From an uncultured Actinomycetes bacterium (lineage in GTDB: Bacteria > Actinomycetota > Thermoleophilia > UBA2241), in the NCBI GenBank assembly GCA_963755025.1, contig CAVWIH010000017.1, positions 54,078-118,077 of the forward strand: a stretch of 64,000 bases of DNA. Direction: 5' to 3'. The translations under genes and the position numbers were made by a program. Of this stretch, positions 5,668 through 57,637 are shown piece after piece. Under the pieces are notes generated by a model. It did not search any database and was not told where the DNA came from. It was given only the letters and a program-made list of their open reading frames with translations. Numbering within the stretch: position 1 is the stretch's first letter; every line of letters begins with the position of its first letter.

Positions 5668-6117
5668 ATGGGCCGGCGCAAGGACACCGTCGTCGTGAAC
5701 GAGGAGCTGCTCGAGCAGTTGCGCGACGTCTACCGCGAGCTCGGCCCCGGGTTCCCGACCGCCGCCACGCGCCTGTTCAGCACCGAAGGGTCCGCCGACG
5801 GGGGCGATTGGGCGCTCAGCGTCAACGGCCACCTCTCGCGGCTCCTGAACGCGCATGAGCTGGCGAGCACCGACCTGTTCGTGCTGCCGTCGAGCTGGGA
5901 GGTCATGCGGGCCGAGGTGCGCAGCATCAAGGCGAGGCGCGACGTGGTCACCGTGACCGGGTTCATCTACTGCCGGCCGCGGGGCACCTGGGAGCACCTG
6001 CGGCTGCCCTTGCTGCACGTCTGGACGATCTGCGTCGACAGGGCGCTGCGCTTTGAGAGCCTGCTCGACGGCCTCGAGCTCAGGCGCGCCGACGGGCTCA
6101 CCCGCTGCGCCGCCTGA
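5668..6117 (+). CDS. Hypothetical protein, SnoaL/NTF2-like C-terminal half
   Basis: ATG 2 nt after the sigma stop. DVVTVTG...LHVWT....ALRFE pattern is typical of SnoaL-like folds. Confidence 0.55.
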   Translation: MGRRKDTVVVNEELLEQLRDVYRELGPGFPTAATRLFSTEGSADGGDWALSVNGHLSRLLNAHELASTDLFVLPSSWEVMRAEVRSIKARRDVVTVTGFIYCRPRGTWEHLRLPLLHVWTICVDRALRFESLLDGLELRRADGLTRCAA

Positions 6118-6177
6118 ACGTGGGGAATCCTCGCAGCCTGCTGGGCGCGACCACGGCCGGGCGGCCACCCGGCGCTC

Positions 6178-6867
6178 CTACCAGTCCTTGCGGAGCCCTC
6201 CGTCGCGGGCGAGCTTCTCGCGGCAGATCTGCTCGATGGCGCGGCGCACGGTGCGCGCCATGAGCCAGCCCACGACGGTTGCCGAGCCGGCGTAGCTCTG
6301 GGGCTCGCCGCGGCCCGTGCAGGCGACGACGACGGCGTCGGTCGAGGTGCCGCTCGCCGGCGCGCCCTCCGGGGAGAGCACCTGCCACGCGCCGAGCGCC
6401 AGCGTCTTGGCCTCGGTGGCGGTGATGACCGCGTTGACCAGGGCCGCCGGCGTGAGGTGTGCGTCGACCACCACGATCGTATTGATGGTGCCCGTCGCGT
6501 ACGCCGACGGCGGGCTGACGCCGGCGCAGGCGCGGTTGCTGAGTCCCATCGAGACGACGGCCGCCACCGTCGTGCCGTCGCGCGACTCGGCGGCGAGGCG
6601 GGCGTACTGGGTCTTGGCCGCGGTCATGAGACCGACGAACGGCTCGTCGATCCCCAGGCTCGCGGCGAAGGCGGCGAGGTCGGCCGCGGGCGACGAGTCG
6701 GGGGAGACGTCGTCGACGTGCATGTTGACGATCTCGCGGGCCGAGCCGAAGCCGCCGGCCACGAGCGCCGAGCTGAGCAGCGTCAGCGGCCGGGCGCTCG
6801 TCACCCGCACGACGGTCGCGTCGATGGCGACGGCGACGCCGGCGATCGTGGTATCGAGAGGGGTCAT
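6178..6867 (-). CDS. cbiZ: Adenosylcobinamide amidohydrolase
   Basis: LSSA..GGF, GLMTAA, GTINTIV, NAVITATEAK, ASGTSTDAVVV motifs. Confidence 0.88.
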   Translation of the reverse strand: MTPLDTTIAGVAVAIDATVVRVTSARPLTLLSSALVAGGFGSAREIVNMHVDDVSPDSSPAADLAAFAASLGIDEPFVGLMTAAKTQYARLAAESRDGTTVAAVVSMGLSNRACAGVSPPSAYATGTINTIVVVDAHLTPAALVNAVITATEAKTLALGAWQVLSPEGAPASGTSTDAVVVACTGRGEPQSYAGSATVVGWLMARTVRRAIEQICREKLARDGGLRKDW

Positions 6868-12422: not shown

Positions 12423-12641
12423 CTGCTGCGTTCGCGGCCCCTCACACCGCCGTCGTCCCTCGCCGGGAGCCTCCGCTCGCCTGAGCCGGCCCCGCGCCGC
12501 ACCGGCACAGCAGTTTCGACATCGGTCCGCCCGGACACTGAAAGACGAAAACCAGCAGCGGCGATCGCGTGAGCCGGCGGCAGAACAGGCGGGCCTTGGC
12601 GGGCCACGAGACGCGACCACGGCGCGCGACAAGGAGGCACG

Positions 12642-14711
12642 ATGAGCCTTCAGTCCCGAGACAGGACCAAGACCTTCGAGCAGACCTGCATCGACACCAT
12701 CCGTTTTCTGGCGGTCGACGCTGTGCAGAAGGCCAACTCCGGCCACCCCGGCATGCCGATGGGCTTCGCCCCCGTGGCGCACGTGCTGTGGACCCGCCAC
12801 CTCAAGTACGACGCGGCGCACCCCGAGTGGCCCGACCGCGACCGCTTCATCCTGTCGGCCGGCCACGGCAGCATGCTCCTTTACAGCATGCTCTACCTCA
12901 CCGGCTACGGCCTGACGATCGACGACCTCAAGCGCTTCCGCCAGCTCGGCAGCCGCACGCCGGGGCACCCCGAGTACCGCGACGCCCCCGGGATCGAGAC
13001 CACGACCGGGCCGCTCGGGCAGGGCTTCGGCAACGCCGTGGGCATGGCCGTGGCCGAGGCGTTCCTCGGCGGCACCTTCAACGACTCGGCCACGACGGTC
13101 GTCGACCACTACACCTACGCGATCGCCAGCGACGGCGACCTCATGGAGGGCGTCGCCTCGGAGGCGGCGTCGCTGGCCGGTCACCTTGGGCTGGGCAAGC
13201 TCATCGTGCTCTACGACGACAACCTGATCTCGCTCGACGGTCCCACCGAGATGGCCTTCACCGAGGACCGCATGGCGCGCTTCGCCGCCTACGACTGGCA
13301 CACCCAGACCGTGTCCGACGCCAACGACCTCGACGCCCTCGACGCCGCCATCGCGGCCGCCAAGGCCGAGACCGGGCGGCCCTCGATCATCGCCGTGCGC
13401 TCGCACATCGGCTACGGCTCGCCGCACCTGCAGGACACCTCGAAGGCCCACGGCGCGGCGCTCGGCGTCGACGAGGTGAAGGCCACCAAAGCGAACCTCG
13501 ACTGGCCACTCGAACCCGACTTCTACGTGCCCGACGACGTGCTCGCCTTCTATCGCGAGGCCGGCGTGCGCGGCGGCGCCGCGCGGCGCGCCTGGGACGA
13601 GCGCGTCGCGGCGTGGCGCGCGGCCGCGCCCGACGCCGCCGAGCGCTGGGATCGCGCCTGGCGGCGCGAGCCCGCCCCCGGCTGGGAGGCCGCCTTGCCC
13701 GCCTATGGCCTCGGCGACCCCGCCGTGGCCACGAGGGTCGTCTCGGGCGCCGTGATCAACGCCGTGGCGCCGTTCCTGCCCACCCTGATCGGCGGCTCGG
13801 CCGACCTCGCCACGTCGAACAACACGGCCATCAAAGGCGCCGAGGTGTTCGGCAAGGGGTCGCACGCGGGGCGCAACATCTGGTTCGGCGTGCGCGAGCA
13901 CGCCATGGCCGCGGCCTCGAACGGCTTGGCCCTGCACGGCGGCGTCATTCCCTACGCGGCCACCTTCTTTGTGTTCACCGACTACCAGCGTCCCGCGCTG
14001 CGCCTCGGCGCGCTCATGGGAGCGCCGGTGAAGTACGTCTTCACTCACGACAGCATCGGCCTTGGCGAAGACGGCCCCACGCATCAGCCGGTCGAGCACC
14101 TCGCCATCCTGCGGGCGACGCCCAACTTCACGGTGGTGCGGCCCGCCGACGCCACCGAGACCGTCGAAGCCTGGAAGTTCGCCCTGGCGGCGAACGGCGG
14201 GCCGGTCGGGCTTGTGCTCACGCGCCAGAAGCTGCCCGTCATCGACCGTACGCGCTACGCGCCCGCCGCGGGCCTCGCCCGCGGCGCGTACGTGCTGGCC
14301 GACGCGGGCGGCGCGGCGGCGGCGGGCGGCGCGGCGACGGGCGGCGGCGCGGCGACGGAGCCCGAGATCATCCTGATCGCCACCGGCAGCGAGGTGCACC
14401 TCGCCCTCGAGGCCCACGAGCGCCTGGTGGCCGAGGGCGTGCGCTCGCGAGTGGTGAGCATGCCCTGCCGCGACGTGTTCTTCGCCCAGGAGCCGGCGTA
14501 CCGCGACGCCGTGCTGCCGCCTCAGGTCGGGGCGCGCCTGTCGATCGAGGCGGCCGTCACCTTCGGCTGGCGCGACGTGGTCGGCGACCACGGGCAGTCG
14601 ATCGGGCTCGACCGGTTCGGCGCCTCGGCGCCGGCCGAGGACCTCTTCGAGACCTTCGGCTTCACCGCCGACAACGTCTACCTGCGCGCCAAGGCCCTGC
14701 TCGACGGGTGA
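12642..14711 (+). CDS. tkt: Transketolase (copy 2)
   Basis: Same motifs as copy 1; RBS AAGGAGG; first gene of the pentose-phosphate operon. Confidence 0.97.
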
Positions 14712-51288: not shown

Positions 51289-52890
51289 CTAGCGCCACGC
51301 CGTGAACCAGGCGAGGCGGGCGTAGTAGGCGAACGACCACGACTGCGACACGACGAAGGGCAGCCAGGCCAGGGCCAGCCCGACGACGGCGCCGACGTAG
51401 GTCCAGGCGACGATCGCACCGGCGCCGCCCCGGGTACCTGAGCCGGCAGTCGAGCCGGCGCTTGCCGCGGGGGTCGTGAGCGCGCCGGGGCGGGCGCCCG
51501 CGAGCCCGCCGCCCGTTCGCGCCGCCCGGTCGCGCGCCCAGACCACGACCGCGAAGGCCGCGAGGGCGGCGAGGGCCGCCAGCCGCACCGCGGGCGTGCC
51601 GCCCGCCGCCGCGCCCACGGTGGCGGCGCCGACGGCCACGCAGAGCGTCGCCCAGCGGCGGCCCAGCGGCCGCGGCCCGGCCAGGCGCGCCAGCGCCACG
51701 GCCACGAGGATGGCCAGGAACGGGATGGCCGGCGTGAGGTAGTAGATGTACGACTGGCGGCTCGTGGCCAGCCAGGGCAGGTAGAGCACGGCGACCAGCG
51801 CGGGCGCCGCCGCCAGGTTCGGGTCGCGGCGCCGCACCGCCACCCAGGCGAGCCAGACGAAGGCGGCGATCGCGCCCCAGAACAGCAGCGGGTTGCCGAT
51901 GGCGATCAGCCCCAGCACGCCGTGCGGCGAAAGCTGCCAGCGGTACCAGATCGGCGTGGCGTCGAAGATCCAGGTGAGCGGTCGCGAAGACATGCTCGAG
52001 GTGCCCGACACGTTCCAGTTGAAGCTCGCCATGTAGCCCTGCAGGTGCAGCCACTGGCGCACCGTGTGGCCGCTGGCGAAGTAGTCGGCGTAGCTCGCCA
52101 CGTAGACCAGCAGGGGCGCCACGACGAGCCAGACGGCGGCGCGGGCAAGCGTGGCGCCACGAACCGCGCCGGCCGCGCGGCCGGCGCCCGCGGCGGCGCG
52201 TGTGGGGCGATCGTCGGCCCCCGCGCCGGCCGCGCGGCCGGCGCGCCGCGCACGCACCCGGTCGAACGCCACGATGGCCACGGCGCCCAGCAGGGCGAGG
52301 GCTCCCGACCACTTGCTGGCGAGCGCCAGGCCCCCGGTGAGTCCGCAGAGCGCGAGCCAGCGCGTCGCCCTGCCGGACTGCACGTAGCGCAGGGCGCAGT
52401 AGATGCAGACGGCCGACCAGAGCGCGACGAAGGGGTCGAGCACGCCGATGCGCGACTCGGTGATGAGCATGGTGTCCGAGGCGGCCAGCACCAGGGCGGC
52501 GAGCGCCCAGGGCGGAGACAGGCGCAGGCGGCGAGCCAGCGGGTAGACGAGCGCGATCAGCAGGGTGCCGGCGAGGGCCGACGGCACGCGCCAGCCCCAG
52601 GGATCGTCGCCCAGCAACGCGATGCCGGCGGCGATCGAGAGGGTGCCCAGCGGCGGGTGGGCCAGCGAGAGGCTGTCGCCGGGCTTCCACGGCGACGGCG
52701 CCCGCGGTCCGATGTCGCCGTGCACGACGGCGCGCGCGTCGTGCACGTAGTAGTGCTCGTCGAAGACGAGCGTGGGGAAGGCGTCGAGCGAGACCACCCG
52801 GGCCGCCGCCGACAGCGCCACGACGAGCAGCACGAGCACGAGGACCACCCTCGGTGCGGTGCTGCGGCGAGCCGGGGCCGCGACGGTCAT
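51289..52890 (-). CDS. PMT-like (GT-C/GT39) lipid-carrier-dependent glycosyltransferase, copy 2
   Basis: VFDEHYY, HPPLG, WGWR, SRIGVLD, SKWSG, IGNP motifs; TGATG coupling to copy 1. Confidence 0.88.
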   Translation of the reverse strand: MTVAAPARRSTAPRVVLVLVLLVVALSAAARVVSLDAFPTLVFDEHYYVHDARAVVHGDIGPRAPSPWKPGDSLSLAHPPLGTLSIAAGIALLGDDPWGWRVPSALAGTLLIALVYPLARRLRLSPPWALAALVLAASDTMLITESRIGVLDPFVALWSAVCIYCALRYVQSGRATRWLALCGLTGGLALASKWSGALALLGAVAIVAFDRVRARRAGRAAGAGADDRPTRAAAGAGRAAGAVRGATLARAAVWLVVAPLLVYVASYADYFASGHTVRQWLHLQGYMASFNWNVSGTSSMSSRPLTWIFDATPIWYRWQLSPHGVLGLIAIGNPLLFWGAIAAFVWLAWVAVRRRDPNLAAAPALVAVLYLPWLATSRQSYIYYLTPAIPFLAILVAVALARLAGPRPLGRRWATLCVAVGAATVGAAAGGTPAVRLAALAALAAFAVVVWARDRAARTGGGLAGARPGALTTPAASAGSTAGSGTRGGAGAIVAWTYVGAVVGLALAWLPFVVSQSWSFAYYARLAWFTAWR

Positions 52891-54471
52891 CAGATCCAGT
52901 TGCGGAACCACATGAGGTGGTAGAAGTGCGTGGTCGAGATGCTCAGGTCGATGAGGATCGGCAGGAAGGCCAGGCAGACGCCGGTGACCGCTCCGGCGTA
53001 GATCCAGGTGAAGTAGGGCCACAGGCCGCGGGCGCGGGGCCACACGATGAGCAGCACCACGGCGAACAGCACGACGGCGAGCGCCACGACGAGCACGGCC
53101 CAGGCGAACGCCGGCGAGACCAGCGACGGGTCGCGCCAGAACAGCCAGGCGGCCGCCTGGCCGATCTGGTACCACAGCAGGGCGGTGACCGCGGCGGCGG
53201 CGGCGTAGCAGCCCGCCGCCCACTGCCAGCCCGGCAGGCGGGCGCGCGAGAGCTCGCGCAGCGCCATGGCGACCGCCAGGGCCATGAACGGCGCCACCGG
53301 CGTCATGTAGTACATGAACGAGGTGCGCGAGGCTGAGAACCACGGCAGGTAGAGCAGGGCGACGATCAGCGGCAGCAGCGCGAGCTCGCGGTCGCGCCGC
53401 ACGATCGCCAGCACCACGAGGGCGACGAGCGCCGGCACCGAGGCCCACCAGAGCAGCGGGTTGCCGATCGAGATGATGCCGTGCACGGCGCCGTGCACCT
53501 GCTCGTAGTAGTACCAGACCGGCCGGTAGTCGAAGATCCAGGTGTAGGACTTTGAGGCGTAGGTGTGGGTGGCGTGCAGGTTCTCGTTGAACCACCACAT
53601 CTCGTGCTGCAGGGCCCACCACTGCGACAGGGTGTGGTGGCCCTTGGTGAAGTAGTCGGCGTAGCTCGCCACGTAGAGCGCGACGGGCAGCACGACGAGC
53701 GCCAGCGCGGGCGCCACGGCGTCGCGCAGGGCGTGCCACGCCAGGGCGCCCGGCGGCTCCTGCCACGAGCGGCCGCCGGTAGAGCAGGATGATGGCCAGG
53801 GCCGCCACGCAGGCGAAGCCGCCCGACCACTTGGTGCCCAGGGCGAGCCCGCCGGCGACCCCGCACAGCAGGAGCCAGCGCAGACGGTGGCCGCTCTGCA
53901 CGTAGCGCAGGGCGAGGTAGATGCAGAGCACCGACCAGACGGCGATGAAGATGTCGAGAGTGGCGATGCGCGACTGCACGATGCCCAGAAAGTCGGAGGC
54001 CGCCAGCACCAGACCGAGCAGCGCCCAGACGGGCGCCAGGCCCAGCCGGCGGCCGATCGGATAGATCAGGGCGAGCAACCCCACGCCGGCGATCGCCGAC
54101 ATGATGCGCCAGCCGAACGAGGTGTCGCCGAAGCCCGCTTCGCCGACGGCGATGGCGTACTTGCCGTACTCGGGGTGGGGCCAGGAGATCTCTTTGCCGG
54201 GCTCCCACGGGTAATACGTCGTGGGGCCGAGATAGCCGTGCAGGATGGTGTGCGCGTCGCGCGCGTAGTAGGTCTCGTCGAAGACGAGGGTGTTGGGCCG
54301 CTGCAGCTCGTAGAGACGCACGGTGGCCGAGGCGATGAGCACGAGGAGCACGAGCGTGATGACGACGCTGGGCGCGCGCTCGAAGCGGCGCGGGGCCGCG
54401 CCGTCGTGCGTGCGGTCGGGGTGGTCGTGGGGCGGGGCAGGCGCCTCGCTGGACTTCGCGGTCTGTGCCAT
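52890..54471 (-). CDS. PMT-like (GT-C/GT39) glycosyltransferase, copy 1; frameshift near 53740
   Basis: VFDETYY, HPEYGK, FGWR, SRIATLD, TKWSG; then H.YAS..W, IGNP, FMYY in a second frame. Confidence 0.88.
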
Positions 54472-54484
54472 CCGAGCCATTATA
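54472..54484 (-). promoter_or_regulatory. Putative -10 for a leaderless PMT transcript
   Basis: TATAAT (54484-54479) exactly 7 nt before ATG 54471; no SD sequence. Confidence 0.55.
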
Positions 54485-54494
54485 GACAGATGGC

Positions 54495-55058
54495 CTACTC
54501 CGTGACGGGCGCCGCGTCGGGGAGCGGCGCGGGATCGCGCATGGTCACGGCGACCAGCCAGGCGAGGCCGATGGCGATGAGCACGTCGCCGAGGCTGAAG
54601 ACGTTGGCCAGGGGCAGCCAGTGCGGCACGCCCACCACGTCGCCCAGGAACCAGAGGTGGGTGTGCGCGCCGTCGAGCACCGAGTTGTTGTGGGGGTGCG
54701 CCGACACCGGCAGGCCGGCCGTGCGCATGGCCGCGGCTCGCGCCGGCATGTAGCCGCGATTGACGACGATGGTGACCGCGTTCAGCAGCACGCCGAGCCC
54801 GAACAGCATGACCGGCGGGCGCGGCAGGTTGACCGCGACGAAGACGAGCAGGAAGCCGTACGAGGCGATGTGCATGACGACCGGCGAGCCGCCCGGCAGC
54901 GGACCGGCGAGCGGTGAGAAGGCGACGATCTGCAGCCCCAGGGCGATCACCACCAGCCAGGGCAGGCGCAGCGCGAGGCGCTCGAGGTTGGCGAGGTTGC
55001 CGCCCAGCAGCAGGCCGCCCACGAGCCCGCCGACGACGGCGGCGACGAGCACTAGCAC
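54495..55058 (-). CDS. DUF5317-like membrane protein (candidate LspA-like peptidase)
   Basis: GG.L..L, LN..I..N.GYMP, L.FLGD, VFSLGD motifs; overlaps the HD-GYP stop codon. Confidence 0.8.
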   Translation of the reverse strand: MLVLVAAVVGGLVGGLLLGGNLANLERLALRLPWLVVIALGLQIVAFSPLAGPLPGGSPVVMHIASYGFLLVFVAVNLPRPPVMLFGLGVLLNAVTIVVNRGYMPARAAAMRTAGLPVSAHPHNNSVLDGAHTHLWFLGDVVGVPHWLPLANVFSLGDVLIAIGLAWLVAVTMRDPAPLPDAAPVTE

Positions 55059-56362
55059 GGCGTCTTGGCGACGACGGTGGGAAGGACGACCAGGTGGCGC
55101 TGCGCGTCGCCGCGATAGACGCCGACGAACGTGTCGACGAGATCGGGGTCGAACTGCCGGCCGGCGCCGCGGCGCAGCTCGGTGAGGGCGATCTCGGGCG
55201 ACAGCGCCGCGCGGTACGGGCGGTCGGAGGTCATGGCGTCGTAGGCGTCGGCCACGGTGATGATGCGCGCGCCGAGCGGGATGTGGGTGCCGGCCAGGCC
55301 GTCGGGGTAGCCGCGGCCGTCCCAGCGTTCGTGGTGGTGGCGTATGTAGTCGCGTCCCTTGCGATACATGCTGAACTGACCGGCGAGCTCGCTGCCGTCG
55401 GCGGGGTGGGCGATGATCGCCTTACGTTCGTCGTCGGTCAGCGACGCCTGCTTGTAGAGGATGCGGTTGTCGGTGGCGATCTTGCCGAGGTCGTGCACGC
55501 GCGCCGCCGAGATCACCAGGTCGATCTCTTTGCGCGGCAGGTCGAGCGCCCGGGCGATCTCGCCAGCGTACTCGGCGACGCGCCGCGAGTGCTGGAAGGT
55601 GTACTCGTCGCGCTTGTCGACGGTGTCGGCCAGCAGCACCAGGGCGTTGTCGGTCTCGGTCTGCAGGTTCGCGTAGAGCTTGAAGCCGTTGTAGATGACG
55701 AGGATGAGGAACGGAAAGTAGAGGATGTTCCAGCGGCTGTCCTGATAGGCGAAGGCCAGCAGCGCGCCGAGCGGCGCCATGGAGACGTAGAGCACGCCCA
55801 TCTCGCGGAACGAGGCCGTCCATTCGTGAAAGAACGAGCGGCCTGAGAGGCTGATGACGACGGTGACCAGGGTGTCGTTGACCAGCAGAAAGACGACCGC
55901 CGCGACCAGGATGGCGAGGGCGTCGCGGCTTAAGTCGACGGGCCCCGGCACGGCGAGCAGCCGGTAGACGAGCGCCGCGAAGCCGGCCGACAGGGTGAGC
56001 TGGCCGGCGTTGAAGACGACGCGCGTCCAGTGGCGGTGCGAGATGATGAGGTCGCTGATGACCACGCCGCCGATGGCGATGATGCCGGCGAAGGCCGGGC
56101 CGTAAAGGATGGCGGCGGCAAAGCCGACCGTGAGCGACAGCGACATGCTGCCTTCGAGGCTCGACGCCACCGCCCAGCGTTCGCTCGTGACCGCCGCGGC
56201 CAGGAAGATGATGAGGTCGATCCAGTGGTCGGGCGGGAAGGTGCCGGCGGTCGCGGCCACGAGCACCGCGGCCGAGACGGCCACGATGCAGATGTATGTT
56301 GCCACCGCTGGCGACACGCGCGGTGCGGCTACAGGAACCCCGGGAGTGGGCTGGTCGGTCAC
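55052..56362 (-). CDS. Membrane-bound HD-GYP cyclic-dinucleotide phosphodiesterase with multi-TM N-terminal sensor
   Basis: About 7-8 hydrophobic helices, then [41 protein letters not shown]. Confidence 0.93.
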
Positions 56363-56421
56363 TGCTCTTCAGTGCTGCTTTGCGCTGCTCGAGGTGCGGT
56401 CGTTGGGCAGTCGCCGGGCGG

Positions 56422-56514
56422 TCAGTCCCACTTCCACCAGGCGCCGCTGGCAACGGCCAGCGCGACGACCAGGGCAAGCGCTATGACGACACGGTTGTAG
56501 AGCAACGATCTCAT
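56422..56514 (-). CDS. 30-aa signal-peptide-like s[33 protein letters not shown]
   Basis: Read manually; not in the ORF track. RBS AGAGAGGG before ATG; paralogous C-terminus with the neighbouring sORF. Confidence 0.85.
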
Positions 56515-56560
56515 GATCCCTCTCTTTTGCGTGAACGGGCGTGCGCGTGCGGCCGAGCTG

Positions 56561-56656
56561 CTAGCTCCACTTCTTGGCGGCTCCGCTGGCCACGGCGATG
56601 CACACGATCAAGGCGATCATGGCGAGCTTTGGGTACTTACCGGTCAAGTGCTGCAT
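56561..56656 (-). CDS. 31-aa signal-peptide-like s[34 protein letters not shown]
   Basis: RBS AGAAAGGA 7 nt before ATG; shares AVASGAxxKWx with the adjacent sORF. Confidence 0.88.
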
Positions 56657-56754
56657 GTCGGTGTCCTTTCTGGGTGATCCCCACCAGATCGACCCCGCTG
56701 TTCGGCTGGCGCGACAGGCGTTCGCCGAATGCGTCTGGTCCCAGTGTAGGTGGG

Positions 56755-56782
56755 TATCGGCAGCGCGGCCACCTGACTTTAG
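56755..56782 (-). promoter_or_regulatory. Sigma28/FliA/WhiG-type promoter
   Basis: Minus strand reads CTAAA-N16-GCCGATA, about 100 nt upstream of the first sORF. Confidence 0.7.
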
Positions 56783-56998
56783 CCGCAAACCGCCGCAAAC
56801 GGGGCGCCGTCGGCGCGGCGCAGAACGGCGCCGGCCGCACCGGCCGCGCCGCGTGTGATATCACTTCCTTGGCTCACAAAGCGGGCCGCCGGGCGCGCCG
56901 CACTCGCGTACGCCCAGGCGATCTGGGTCTGGAAGCGACCTCAGGCGACAAGTCCGCGGGCGCTCGTCGCCGCCGCGGCGAAGAGGGGGGAATACCCG

Positions 56999-57637
56999 AT
57001 GACCGACCCACAGCGCGAAGTGCTCGCCACGGTGAAAGACAAGGTGGCCAATCCGGCGCCGTTGGGGCTCATGGCGTTCGGCATCACCACCGTGCTGCTC
57101 AACCTGAGCAACGCCGGCCTGTTCGGCATGAACACCATGATCCTCGCCATGGCCGTGTTCTACGGCGGCCTCGCCCAGGTCGTCGTGGCCCTGCAGGAGT
57201 ACAAGAAGAACAACGTCTTCGGGGCCACGGCTTTTGCCTCGTACGGCCTGTTCTGGCTGTCGTTCGTGGGCATGCTCGTGTTCCCCAGGTGGATGGGCAT
57301 CGCGCCGCCGACCACGACGGCCGTCGGCTGGTACCTGCTCGCCTGGGGTGTGTTCACCGGCCTCATGTTCGTGGCGACGCTGCGCATCACCGTGTCGCTG
57401 CAGGTGGTCTTCGGCAGTCTCACGGTCCTCTTCGTGCTGCTCGCCCTCTCGGCCTGGACGGGCAACGCCACGCTCGGCAAGGTCGCCGGGTGGGAGGGCG
57501 TGTTCGTGGGCCTGTCGGCCGTCTACGGCGCCGTCGCGCAGATCTGGAACGAGGTCTACGGCCGCGTCGTGCTGCCGCTCGGGCCCGTGTCCGTGTCGCA
57601 CCGCGTCAAAGTCATGCCGTCGACCAGCGGTCGCTAG
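56999..57637 (+). CDS. satP: Acetate transporter, SatP/GPR1/FUN34/YaaH family
   Basis: [29 protein letters not shown] motifs. Confidence 0.9.

Follow-up and report, generated by a model that had tools for sequence, protein, structure and literature searches.

Paired micro-protein genes of predicted membrane character upstream of a MASE9-HD-GYP gene, behind a putative WhiG-type promoter, in uncultured Thermoleophilia

Introduction

Two tandem ORFs of about 30 codons each, called A and B here, raise the question of what so small a pair of related peptides might do: whether the ORFs are genes at all, and if so whether their products are exported and trimmed to signals, remain in the membrane, act on membranes by themselves, or matter only as translated leaders. 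They lie in a 64,000 nt stretch (the window) of contig CAVWIH010000017.1 from the uncultured Thermoleophilia assembly GCA_963755025.1. An initial annotation took them for hidden precursors of secreted peptides, with a lipobox-like cleavage site and C-terminal hexapeptides that might be two pherotypes or an agonist/antagonist pair. The locus was compared here with its relatives in the same genome, genus, family and class and in public protein collections, and the upstream region and neighboring genes were examined along with the peptides themselves.

The A-B locus

Both ORFs and their ribosome-binding stretches are present on the minus strand as the initial annotation had them (Table 1), with a purine-rich, SD-like sequence 4–8 nt 5' of each ATG. 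The translations bear out the likeness of the C-termini, which are identical at eight of the last 11 positions. The statement that one ORF had been mis-started in the ORF track and the other missed is right for A, buried in a 75-aa ORF with a TTG start, and wrong for B, which is correctly listed. Nor does "hidden" quite describe the pair: exact copies of A and B are already public as predicted proteins, although at most as "hypothetical protein", and they are thus uncharacterised, not hidden.

Table 1. Features of the A-B locus and related sites elsewhere. Positions without a contig prefix are in the window.
Feature	Position	Strand	Remarks
Micro-protein A	56561..56656	minus	31 aa plus stop, ATG start
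SD-like AAAGGA of A	56669..56664	minus	purine-rich
Micro-protein B	56422..56514	minus	30 aa plus stop, ATG start
SD-like AGAGAGGGA of B	56525..56517	minus	purine-rich
MASE9 (membrane sensor) + HD-GYP c-di-GMP phosphodiesterase	55052..56362	minus	436 aa; Pfam HD_5 1.3e-34, MASE9 1.2e-10
DUF5317 membrane protein	54495..55058	minus	187 aa; PF17248 7.7e-27
Long ORF past DUF5317	51289..54480	minus	1063 aa; both halves match PMT/PMT_2, Arg/Ala/Pro-rich middle
Predicted WhiG/sigma-28-type promoter	56755..56781	minus	exact match to T(A/C)AA-N16-GCCGATAA
-35 element TAAA	56781..56778	minus	followed by N16
-10 element GCCGATA	56761..56755	minus
Leader box CACTGGGACCAG	56735..56746	minus	just 3' of the -10 element, near the expected transcript start
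Leader box GGTCGATCTGGTGGGGATC	56676..56694	minus	just 5' of the A ribosome-binding site
WhiG-family sigma factor	C7:4210-4887		same contig as RsiG-like gene, 36 kb apart
RsiG-like protein	C7:40867-41157		97 aa, single-motif
Exact WhiG-type sites (some)	G000 C39:48960-48986, C30:34018-34044, C3:19768-19992, C12:65088-65114, C5:34216-34242

Downstream, the MASE9-HD-GYP gene starts 60 nt past the B stop codon, and its end is overlapped by 7 nt by the DUF5317 gene. Beyond these are a PMT-type glycosyltransferase ORF and, on the opposite strand, acetate-transporter (SatP) and hut genes. Related loci have genes of 531–644 aa at the position of the PMT-type ORF; its length may come from read-through of two tandem genes, from a frameshift, or from faulty assembly.

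Contigs from RNA libraries (four metatranscriptome runs from two studies, at low depth) cover positions 55949..56864. Two of them, 56212..56547 and 56349..56527, bridge B and the start of the HD-GYP gene; a divergent one covers A, and another (56656..56864) reaches upstream of the predicted promoter. Such contigs indicate presence only, not strand, ends or level, and the libraries can contain DNA, so that they give weak support for transcription of the peptide genes.

Distribution

The search of this and related genomes that the initial annotation had suggested was carried out, and recovered further A-B pairs in the genome itself, in the genus and in the family. The second pair in this genome is on a different contig. 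With B as the query, strong matches were found in 12 of the 12 genomes of the genus, this one included, with weaker A-type matches ~150 nt upstream of the B matches and one to three pairs per genome. A profile search with A and B across the family, a group of uncultured Thermoleophilia, gave matches in 23 of 89 genomes: all 12 in the same genus, and 6/54, 2/13, and 1/1 (three times) in others. When 301 genomes were sampled across the class, matches came from 13 of the 55 in this family, with one weak match from a second family and none from the other ten. A pattern scan of one genome per species (185,579 species), using an alignment of A only, identified 18 loci, all in assemblies labelled as uncultured Thermoleophilia, Actinomycetes, or Actinomycetota except for one labelled Alphaproteobacteria (L055). 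The A-B pair in this last is ~80% identical to that of the window, and its taxonomic assignment probably stems from a mistake in binning or labelling.

Among 1.84 billion representative proteins, a HMMER profile search matched 42 cluster representatives, all of them either such peptides or over-extended calls with one at their end; the tail form widespread among them is A-S-G-A-G-x-K-W. No significant match to a curated family was found in Pfam (best E-values 0.17–0.19), NCBIfam (0.073), PHROGs (0.06) or the PDB, where the sole match was a designed Ala/Leu repeat protein. Clusters from the ESM Atlas were all unnamed, and recognition there did not reach the reliable range. Literature searches on the tail motifs, and on "small membrane protein" together with c-di-GMP, found no paper in the library on the former and, among the papers listed, nothing relevant on the latter.

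A few of the relatives have unusual arrangements. One 36-aa public representative (P0014) starts with a B-type tail (..WWKWD) that continues directly into an A-type peptide, which may reflect a fusion of B with A, recombination, or a miscalled gene. At L037 (G022:C2) there are two inverted A-B pairs encoding identical peptides (6008..6267 and 12541..12801), ~6.5 kb apart, only one of them followed by the HD-GYP cluster. At L038 (G024:C8, ~5983 onward), a B-like ORF runs past K-W (..GFKWAGFVTIAWDY..) with no stop codon there.

Conservation and selection

From the related genomes, 59 unique copies were gathered, all with ATG and stop codons in register. They encode 28–38 residues from the ATG, mostly 30–32, with the stop 0–3 residues past K-W. 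None of the matches from the genome searches has an internal stop. Stops or frameshifts in homologues, and loss of the K-W tail, had been named beforehand as evidence that would count against the peptides; neither stops nor frameshifts were found, and K-W is retained in 53 of 53 aligned copies, being changed only in two remote single-copy relatives, to R-W and K-G-W. An alignment of 30 copies has K-W in every one (30/30) and S-G-A conserved at 90% or more.

The suggested dN/dS comparison (Nei-Gojobori; 22 A and 20 B sequences) gave its lowest values in the annotated frames, 0.33 for A and 0.23 for B, indicating purifying selection. Four of the five other frames gave 1.06–2.37, and the antisense frame with common third positions 0.52–0.58. 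Individual positions show the same constraint: A21, A23, S24, G25, and A26 of A are each a single residue specified by two to four codons (three or four for A21, A23, and G25), as are L15, V16, L19, and A25 of B. The N-terminal residues vary most along both peptides, and the core and tail least. When seven syntenic loci were aligned, the ORFs were conserved, unlike the A-B spacer, which varies in length, or the spacer between B and the HD-GYP gene. Gene calls at the related loci were made with an ORF and GC3 heuristic of our own; correctly called ORFs have GC3 of 0.81–0.94. Overall, A and B are almost certainly real translated genes.

The two are also related to each other. Their profiles align with an hhalign probability of 97.6% (E 3e-12), so the pair appears to go back to an old tandem duplication. 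By their sequences and their joint inheritance across genera, A and B are two ancient paralogous types rather than alleles. The proposal that they are pherotypes or an agonist/antagonist pair fits poorly with this co-inheritance and with the low diversity of the tails, which within the genus are little more varied than AWWKWD or AWLKWD.

Gene neighborhoods

Within the genus, peptide genes lie directly upstream of the HD-GYP orthologue and on the same strand in all 11 genomes that have this orthologue. Outside it, the same arrangement with an HD-GYP homologue, together with DUF5317, is found in G012, G019, G098, G083, G059, G081, and G022. One gene intervenes between the peptides and HD-GYP in G013 and G024; in G024, DUF5317 precedes a 965-aa HD-GYP protein. 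G070 has just a remnant of HD-GYP, and G314, from another family, has a single R-W variant. A full-length HD-GYP homologue from yet another family is preceded by a 27-aa ORF whose product ends in K-G-W. DUF5317 homologues were on the same strand as the HD-GYP gene, beside it or a few kb away, at 11 of 11 further loci.

Across the 89 family genomes, 21 have both the peptides and the HD-GYP orthologue, two the peptides only, five the orthologue only, and 61 neither, a table that overstates independence because the genomes are related. The two with peptides only are 53–56% complete, and one of them is a weak match.

The genus also has one or two further stand-alone pairs per genome, many of them in convergent orientation with the gene that follows. 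Their neighbors (MMPL, L,D-transpeptidase, saccharopine dehydrogenase, glycyl-tRNA synthetase, and unknowns) have no common theme. An HD-GYP gene next to them is therefore not required for the peptides to function, or at any rate to persist. The converse is seen as well: the same genome has a close MASE9-HD-GYP paralogue (76% identity, C13:88688-89914) with no upstream micro-ORF, and no small hydrophobic ORF was found upstream of other MASE9-HD-GYP paralogues lacking the peptides, so the enzyme can generally do without them.

Promoter and leader

A predicted WhiG-type promoter lies 98 nt 5' of the A start codon, within the 200 bp used for assigning genes to the regulon. The match is exact to the WhiG2 consensus T(A/C)AA-N16-GCCGATAA from a phylum-wide regulon prediction (bioRxiv 10.64898/2026.01.14.699351), and its two elements are those of the sigma-28/WhiG consensus (-35 TAAA, -10 GCCGATAA) from a study of Rubrobacter (PMC8325347). 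In the alignment of seven syntenic loci, the first conserved upstream block reads TAAAGTC-N12-TGCCGATA. For 30 unique regions upstream of A-type genes, the promoter was matched at a fixed distance in 24 (11 with no mismatch, six with one, seven with two) and absent from the other six; regions upstream of B-type genes served as a control and had none at up to one mismatch (0/29). Distances from promoter to A are 91–118 nt in the genus, mostly 91–105, and 63–67 nt in other genera.

The genome as a whole has 12 exact T[AC]AA-N16-GCCGATA sites, the one upstream of A among them, vs 0.52 expected from base composition. The products of the genes behind them include a type IV pilin-like protein (N_methyl motif), a GGDEF cyclase, an MFS transporter, a GH123 hydrolase, a thioesterase, and zinc-ribbon proteins. 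On C3 (G000) two such sites are divergent and 170 nt apart. The genome has a WhiG (TIGR02479, 271.5 bits vs a cut-off of 189.6) and an RsiG (PF22802, 60.1 bits vs a cut-off of 27) with an E-x3-S-x2-R-x3-H-x3-D motif. A flagellin was not found in the genome, which is 84% complete; the exact sites look like a small WhiG regulon without flagellin. This resembles the WhiG regulon of early-branching Actinomycetota, as described for Rubrobacter (PMC8325347), in promoter consensus, in target classes (pili and c-di-GMP enzymes there), and in the presence of WhiG along with an RsiG of single-motif size. Given the conserved promoter and the presence of WhiG and RsiG, the A-B pairs are predicted members of an RsiG-(c-di-GMP)-WhiG regulon, and probably do belong to it. 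The passages on the regulon in PMC8325347 and in bioRxiv 10.64898/2026.01.14.699351, which predicts it throughout the phylum, name no micro-protein targets, though the supplementary tables may list some; compared with the targets named there, the locus differs in having 30-aa ORFs as the genes nearest to the promoter.

Between the promoter and A are two leader boxes (Table 1). Both CACTGGGACCAG and GGTCGATCTGGTGGGGATC are conserved across the seven syntenic loci and among 17 leaders, and both also occur at the stand-alone paralogous pairs. They could be protein-binding sites or an unrecognised RNA element. The leader has no Rfam match at E-values up to 1, and RNAalifold found no consensus structure for the 17 leaders (-0.34 kcal/mol, three pairs). 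A candidate stem between the boxes, GACCAG/CTGGTC, is paired in 73.5% of cells but is not supported: shuffles reached the observed values 159 and 187 times out of 500, and there is no covariation for it. A scan of positions 56200..57100 for sigma-70 promoters and intrinsic terminators found none.

Predicted membrane character and a proposed role

The initial description of both peptides as having a basic N-end, a hydrophobic core, and a common C-terminal motif under selection is supported by the aligned sequences and the dN/dS values. Their uncharged cores are 17–19 residues long. The side-chain charges flanking the core are +2.5 (N) and +0.5 (C) in B, for which the positive-inside rule predicts an N-in/C-out topology; in A the two flanks carry almost the same charge (+2.7 and +2.0), which leaves its topology ambiguous. 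Each core has Ala, Ser, or Gly at positions i, i+4, and i+8, a spacing typical of helix-helix packing, which it may serve here.

We tentatively favor a reading in which A and B are membrane-resident, heteromeric, single-pass micro-proteins, acting as accessory or regulatory partners of the MASE9-HD-GYP sensor. They would be the first two cistrons of an operon continuing into the MASE9-HD-GYP and DUF5317 genes and read from the WhiG (sigma-28-type) promoter, which would turn it on when the c-di-GMP-armed anti-sigma factor RsiG frees WhiG, that is, at low c-di-GMP. The peptides would remain membrane-bound, their basic N-end facing inward and their invariant K-W lying at the outer interface, packed against one another through Ala/Ser/Gly-rich faces with small-xxx-small spacing. 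As intramembrane subunits of the MASE9 sensor domain and/or DUF5317, they might tune c-di-GMP hydrolysis and so feed back on the RsiG-WhiG switch; the stand-alone pairs in the genus would be duplicated copies that have kept the same promoter. That the peptides reside in the membrane, and how they are oriented there, is our inference, as are the pairing of A with B, their binding to MASE9 or DUF5317, and the direction in which regulation would run.

Small single-pass membrane proteins that regulate membrane sensors, such as MgrB or SafA with PhoQ, form a functional class rather than a sequence family. A and B are like them in having fewer than 50 aa and one hydrophobic helix, in being co-regulated with their presumed target system, and in the feedback role proposed for them. 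They differ in having no sequence relation to either and in being two tandem paralogues; where MgrB and SafA target a histidine kinase, PhoQ, the presumed target of A and B would be an HD-GYP phosphodiesterase with MASE9.

A narrower version, with the A-B pair as a membrane-embedded ligand or co-sensor of MASE9, is rather doubtful. The text of Galperin and Chou (bioRxiv 10.1101/2021.11.05.467447) proposes that MASE9 binds a ligand within the membrane, which fits a partnership with the peptides and is not evidence of binding. A complex prediction for MASE9 (residues 1–235, 43-row alignment) with A (27 rows), run with no controls, scored 0.10 and 0.09 vs a mark of 0.32, and we give it no weight in either direction. 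The idea that the peptides copy the first MASE9 helix was dropped, with an hhalign probability of 0.5%. For DUF5317, a literature search found no paper.

Alternative roles

The main rival to a partnership with the sensor keeps the peptides in the membrane and in the WhiG regulon but assigns them to some other envelope process, for example pilus biogenesis, surface behavior, or division, their link to HD-GYP being one of shared transcription only. The stand-alone pairs retain the same promoter; WhiG-type sites also precede the pilin-like, GGDEF, MFS transporter, and other genes; and HD-GYP genes without micro-ORFs bear WhiG-like sites too, all as would be expected if the promoter were the only connection. 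It is harder to reconcile with the situation outside the genus, where every copy examined is in an HD-GYP/DUF5317 cluster, and with the way in which presence and absence of the peptides follow the orthologue within two genera (2/2 in g6, and 5/6 peptide-positive genomes in g10). We consider this alternative somewhat unlikely.

As developed here, the model of the initial annotation has the peptides secreted, with signal peptidase I cutting after A-S-G (or S-G-A) to free K-W signals of 4–6 residues, perhaps sensed by the co-encoded MASE9 sensor. Sec/SPase I-type features are indeed present: a basic n-region, a strongly hydrophobic run of 13–14 residues, and nearly invariant small residues (A-S-G, S-G-A) at -3/-1, with the K-W invariant as well; a 17–19-residue core followed by small residues fits a Gram-positive-type signal peptide, and a membrane sensor gene is at hand. 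However, only 4–6 residues follow the putative site, and a passenger that short is atypical for Sec substrates. The lipobox likeness also fails, as the defining Cys is absent: S-G is followed by Ala in every A-type (27 of 27) and every B-type (26 of 26) sequence. The contrast of divergent N-terminal halves with a conserved tail had been taken as the mark of a cleavage site plus mature peptide, but it overlooks the hydrophobic core, which is conserved residue by residue, as would not be expected of a mere export signal. In some B variants, K-W is set off from the S-G position by a further 1–7 hydrophobic residues, or S-G is missing entirely, and the low tail diversity and A/B co-inheritance again suit pherotypes badly.

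The precursors of Gram-positive peptide pheromones (Phr, SHP/ComS) are similar to A and B in length, basic N-end, hydrophobic core, and small residues before a short C-terminal tail. ComS peptides have a double Trp, which the Trp-rich tail of B recalls. The differences lie in lineage (Firmicutes for those systems, Actinomycetota for A and B), in the residue-level conservation of the core, and in the genes alongside, with no cytoplasmic receptor, exporter, or protease gene near A and B. Opp-type genes, and genes for receptors, exporters, processing proteases, or modification enzymes, are not a recurrent feature next to the pairs, and there is no peptidase, ABC exporter, or radical-SAM gene among the 10 flanking proteins scanned at stand-alone pairs; the neighbors are HD-GYP, DUF5317, PMT, SatP, or unrelated genes, unlike those that define RRNPP/Rgg-type quorum sensing. 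Release of short signals from A and B is decidedly unlikely on this evidence.

Less likely again, and very much so, is that the peptides act on membranes themselves, as a type I toxin-like, pore-forming, or leaderless two-peptide bacteriocin-like pair. Their size, hydrophobicity, and cationic Trp-containing ends would suit this, as would the several copies per genome, some standing alone with the conserved ~95 nt leader. Class IIb two-peptide and leaderless bacteriocins are likewise adjacent, related peptides of ~30 aa with small-xxx-small motifs and Lys/Trp ends. In A and B, though, the ORFs are mostly 30–32 aa, with no double-glycine leader and with no immunity or ABC-transporter genes as neighbors, and they are chromosomal, conserved genus-wide, and apparently in an operon with signalling genes. 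Predicted co-transcription with signalling genes of a housekeeping type in the ancestral context and a predicted developmental sigma promoter also argue against such a role, and the continuous apolar core is more like an anchor than an amphipathic lytic helix. The features of the peptides would fit a small hydrophobic toxin of type I, and no antisense promoter-like site was found in a simple scan, a weak point since the scan covered sigma-70-type sites only.

That A and B are regulatory leader peptides, whose translation rather than product controls HD-GYP, or parts of a conserved RNA element, is hardly credible in spite of their location in the leader of the HD-GYP gene and the conserved non-coding boxes upstream, given the frame-specific selection at the amino-acid level, the stand-alone copies with no downstream gene, and the lack of an Rfam match, consensus structure, or covariation in the leader.

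Significance

Small membrane proteins regularly go unnoticed, and a context that makes one testable is rare. Here there are a WhiG promoter, the hydrolysis of c-di-GMP by HD-GYP, and the S-G-A and K-W motifs to mutate. The locus also illustrates how regulon predictions based on the nearest annotated gene can miss first cistrons of 30 aa. If A and B are merely lineage-specific membrane peptides of the WhiG regulon, the gain is a modest one, in annotation. If they modulate MASE9, c-di-GMP signalling in early-branching Actinomycetota would gain a new layer, and two uncharacterised membrane domains, MASE9 and DUF5317, a first partner. Should they prove to be a ligand or co-sensor of MASE9, they would be the first micro-proteins known to gate a c-di-GMP phosphodiesterase of the HD-GYP type. 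A feedback loop on the RsiG-(c-di-GMP)-WhiG switch would then be closed, and there would be a first way to approach the question of what is sensed by MASE9 and possibly by DUF5317.
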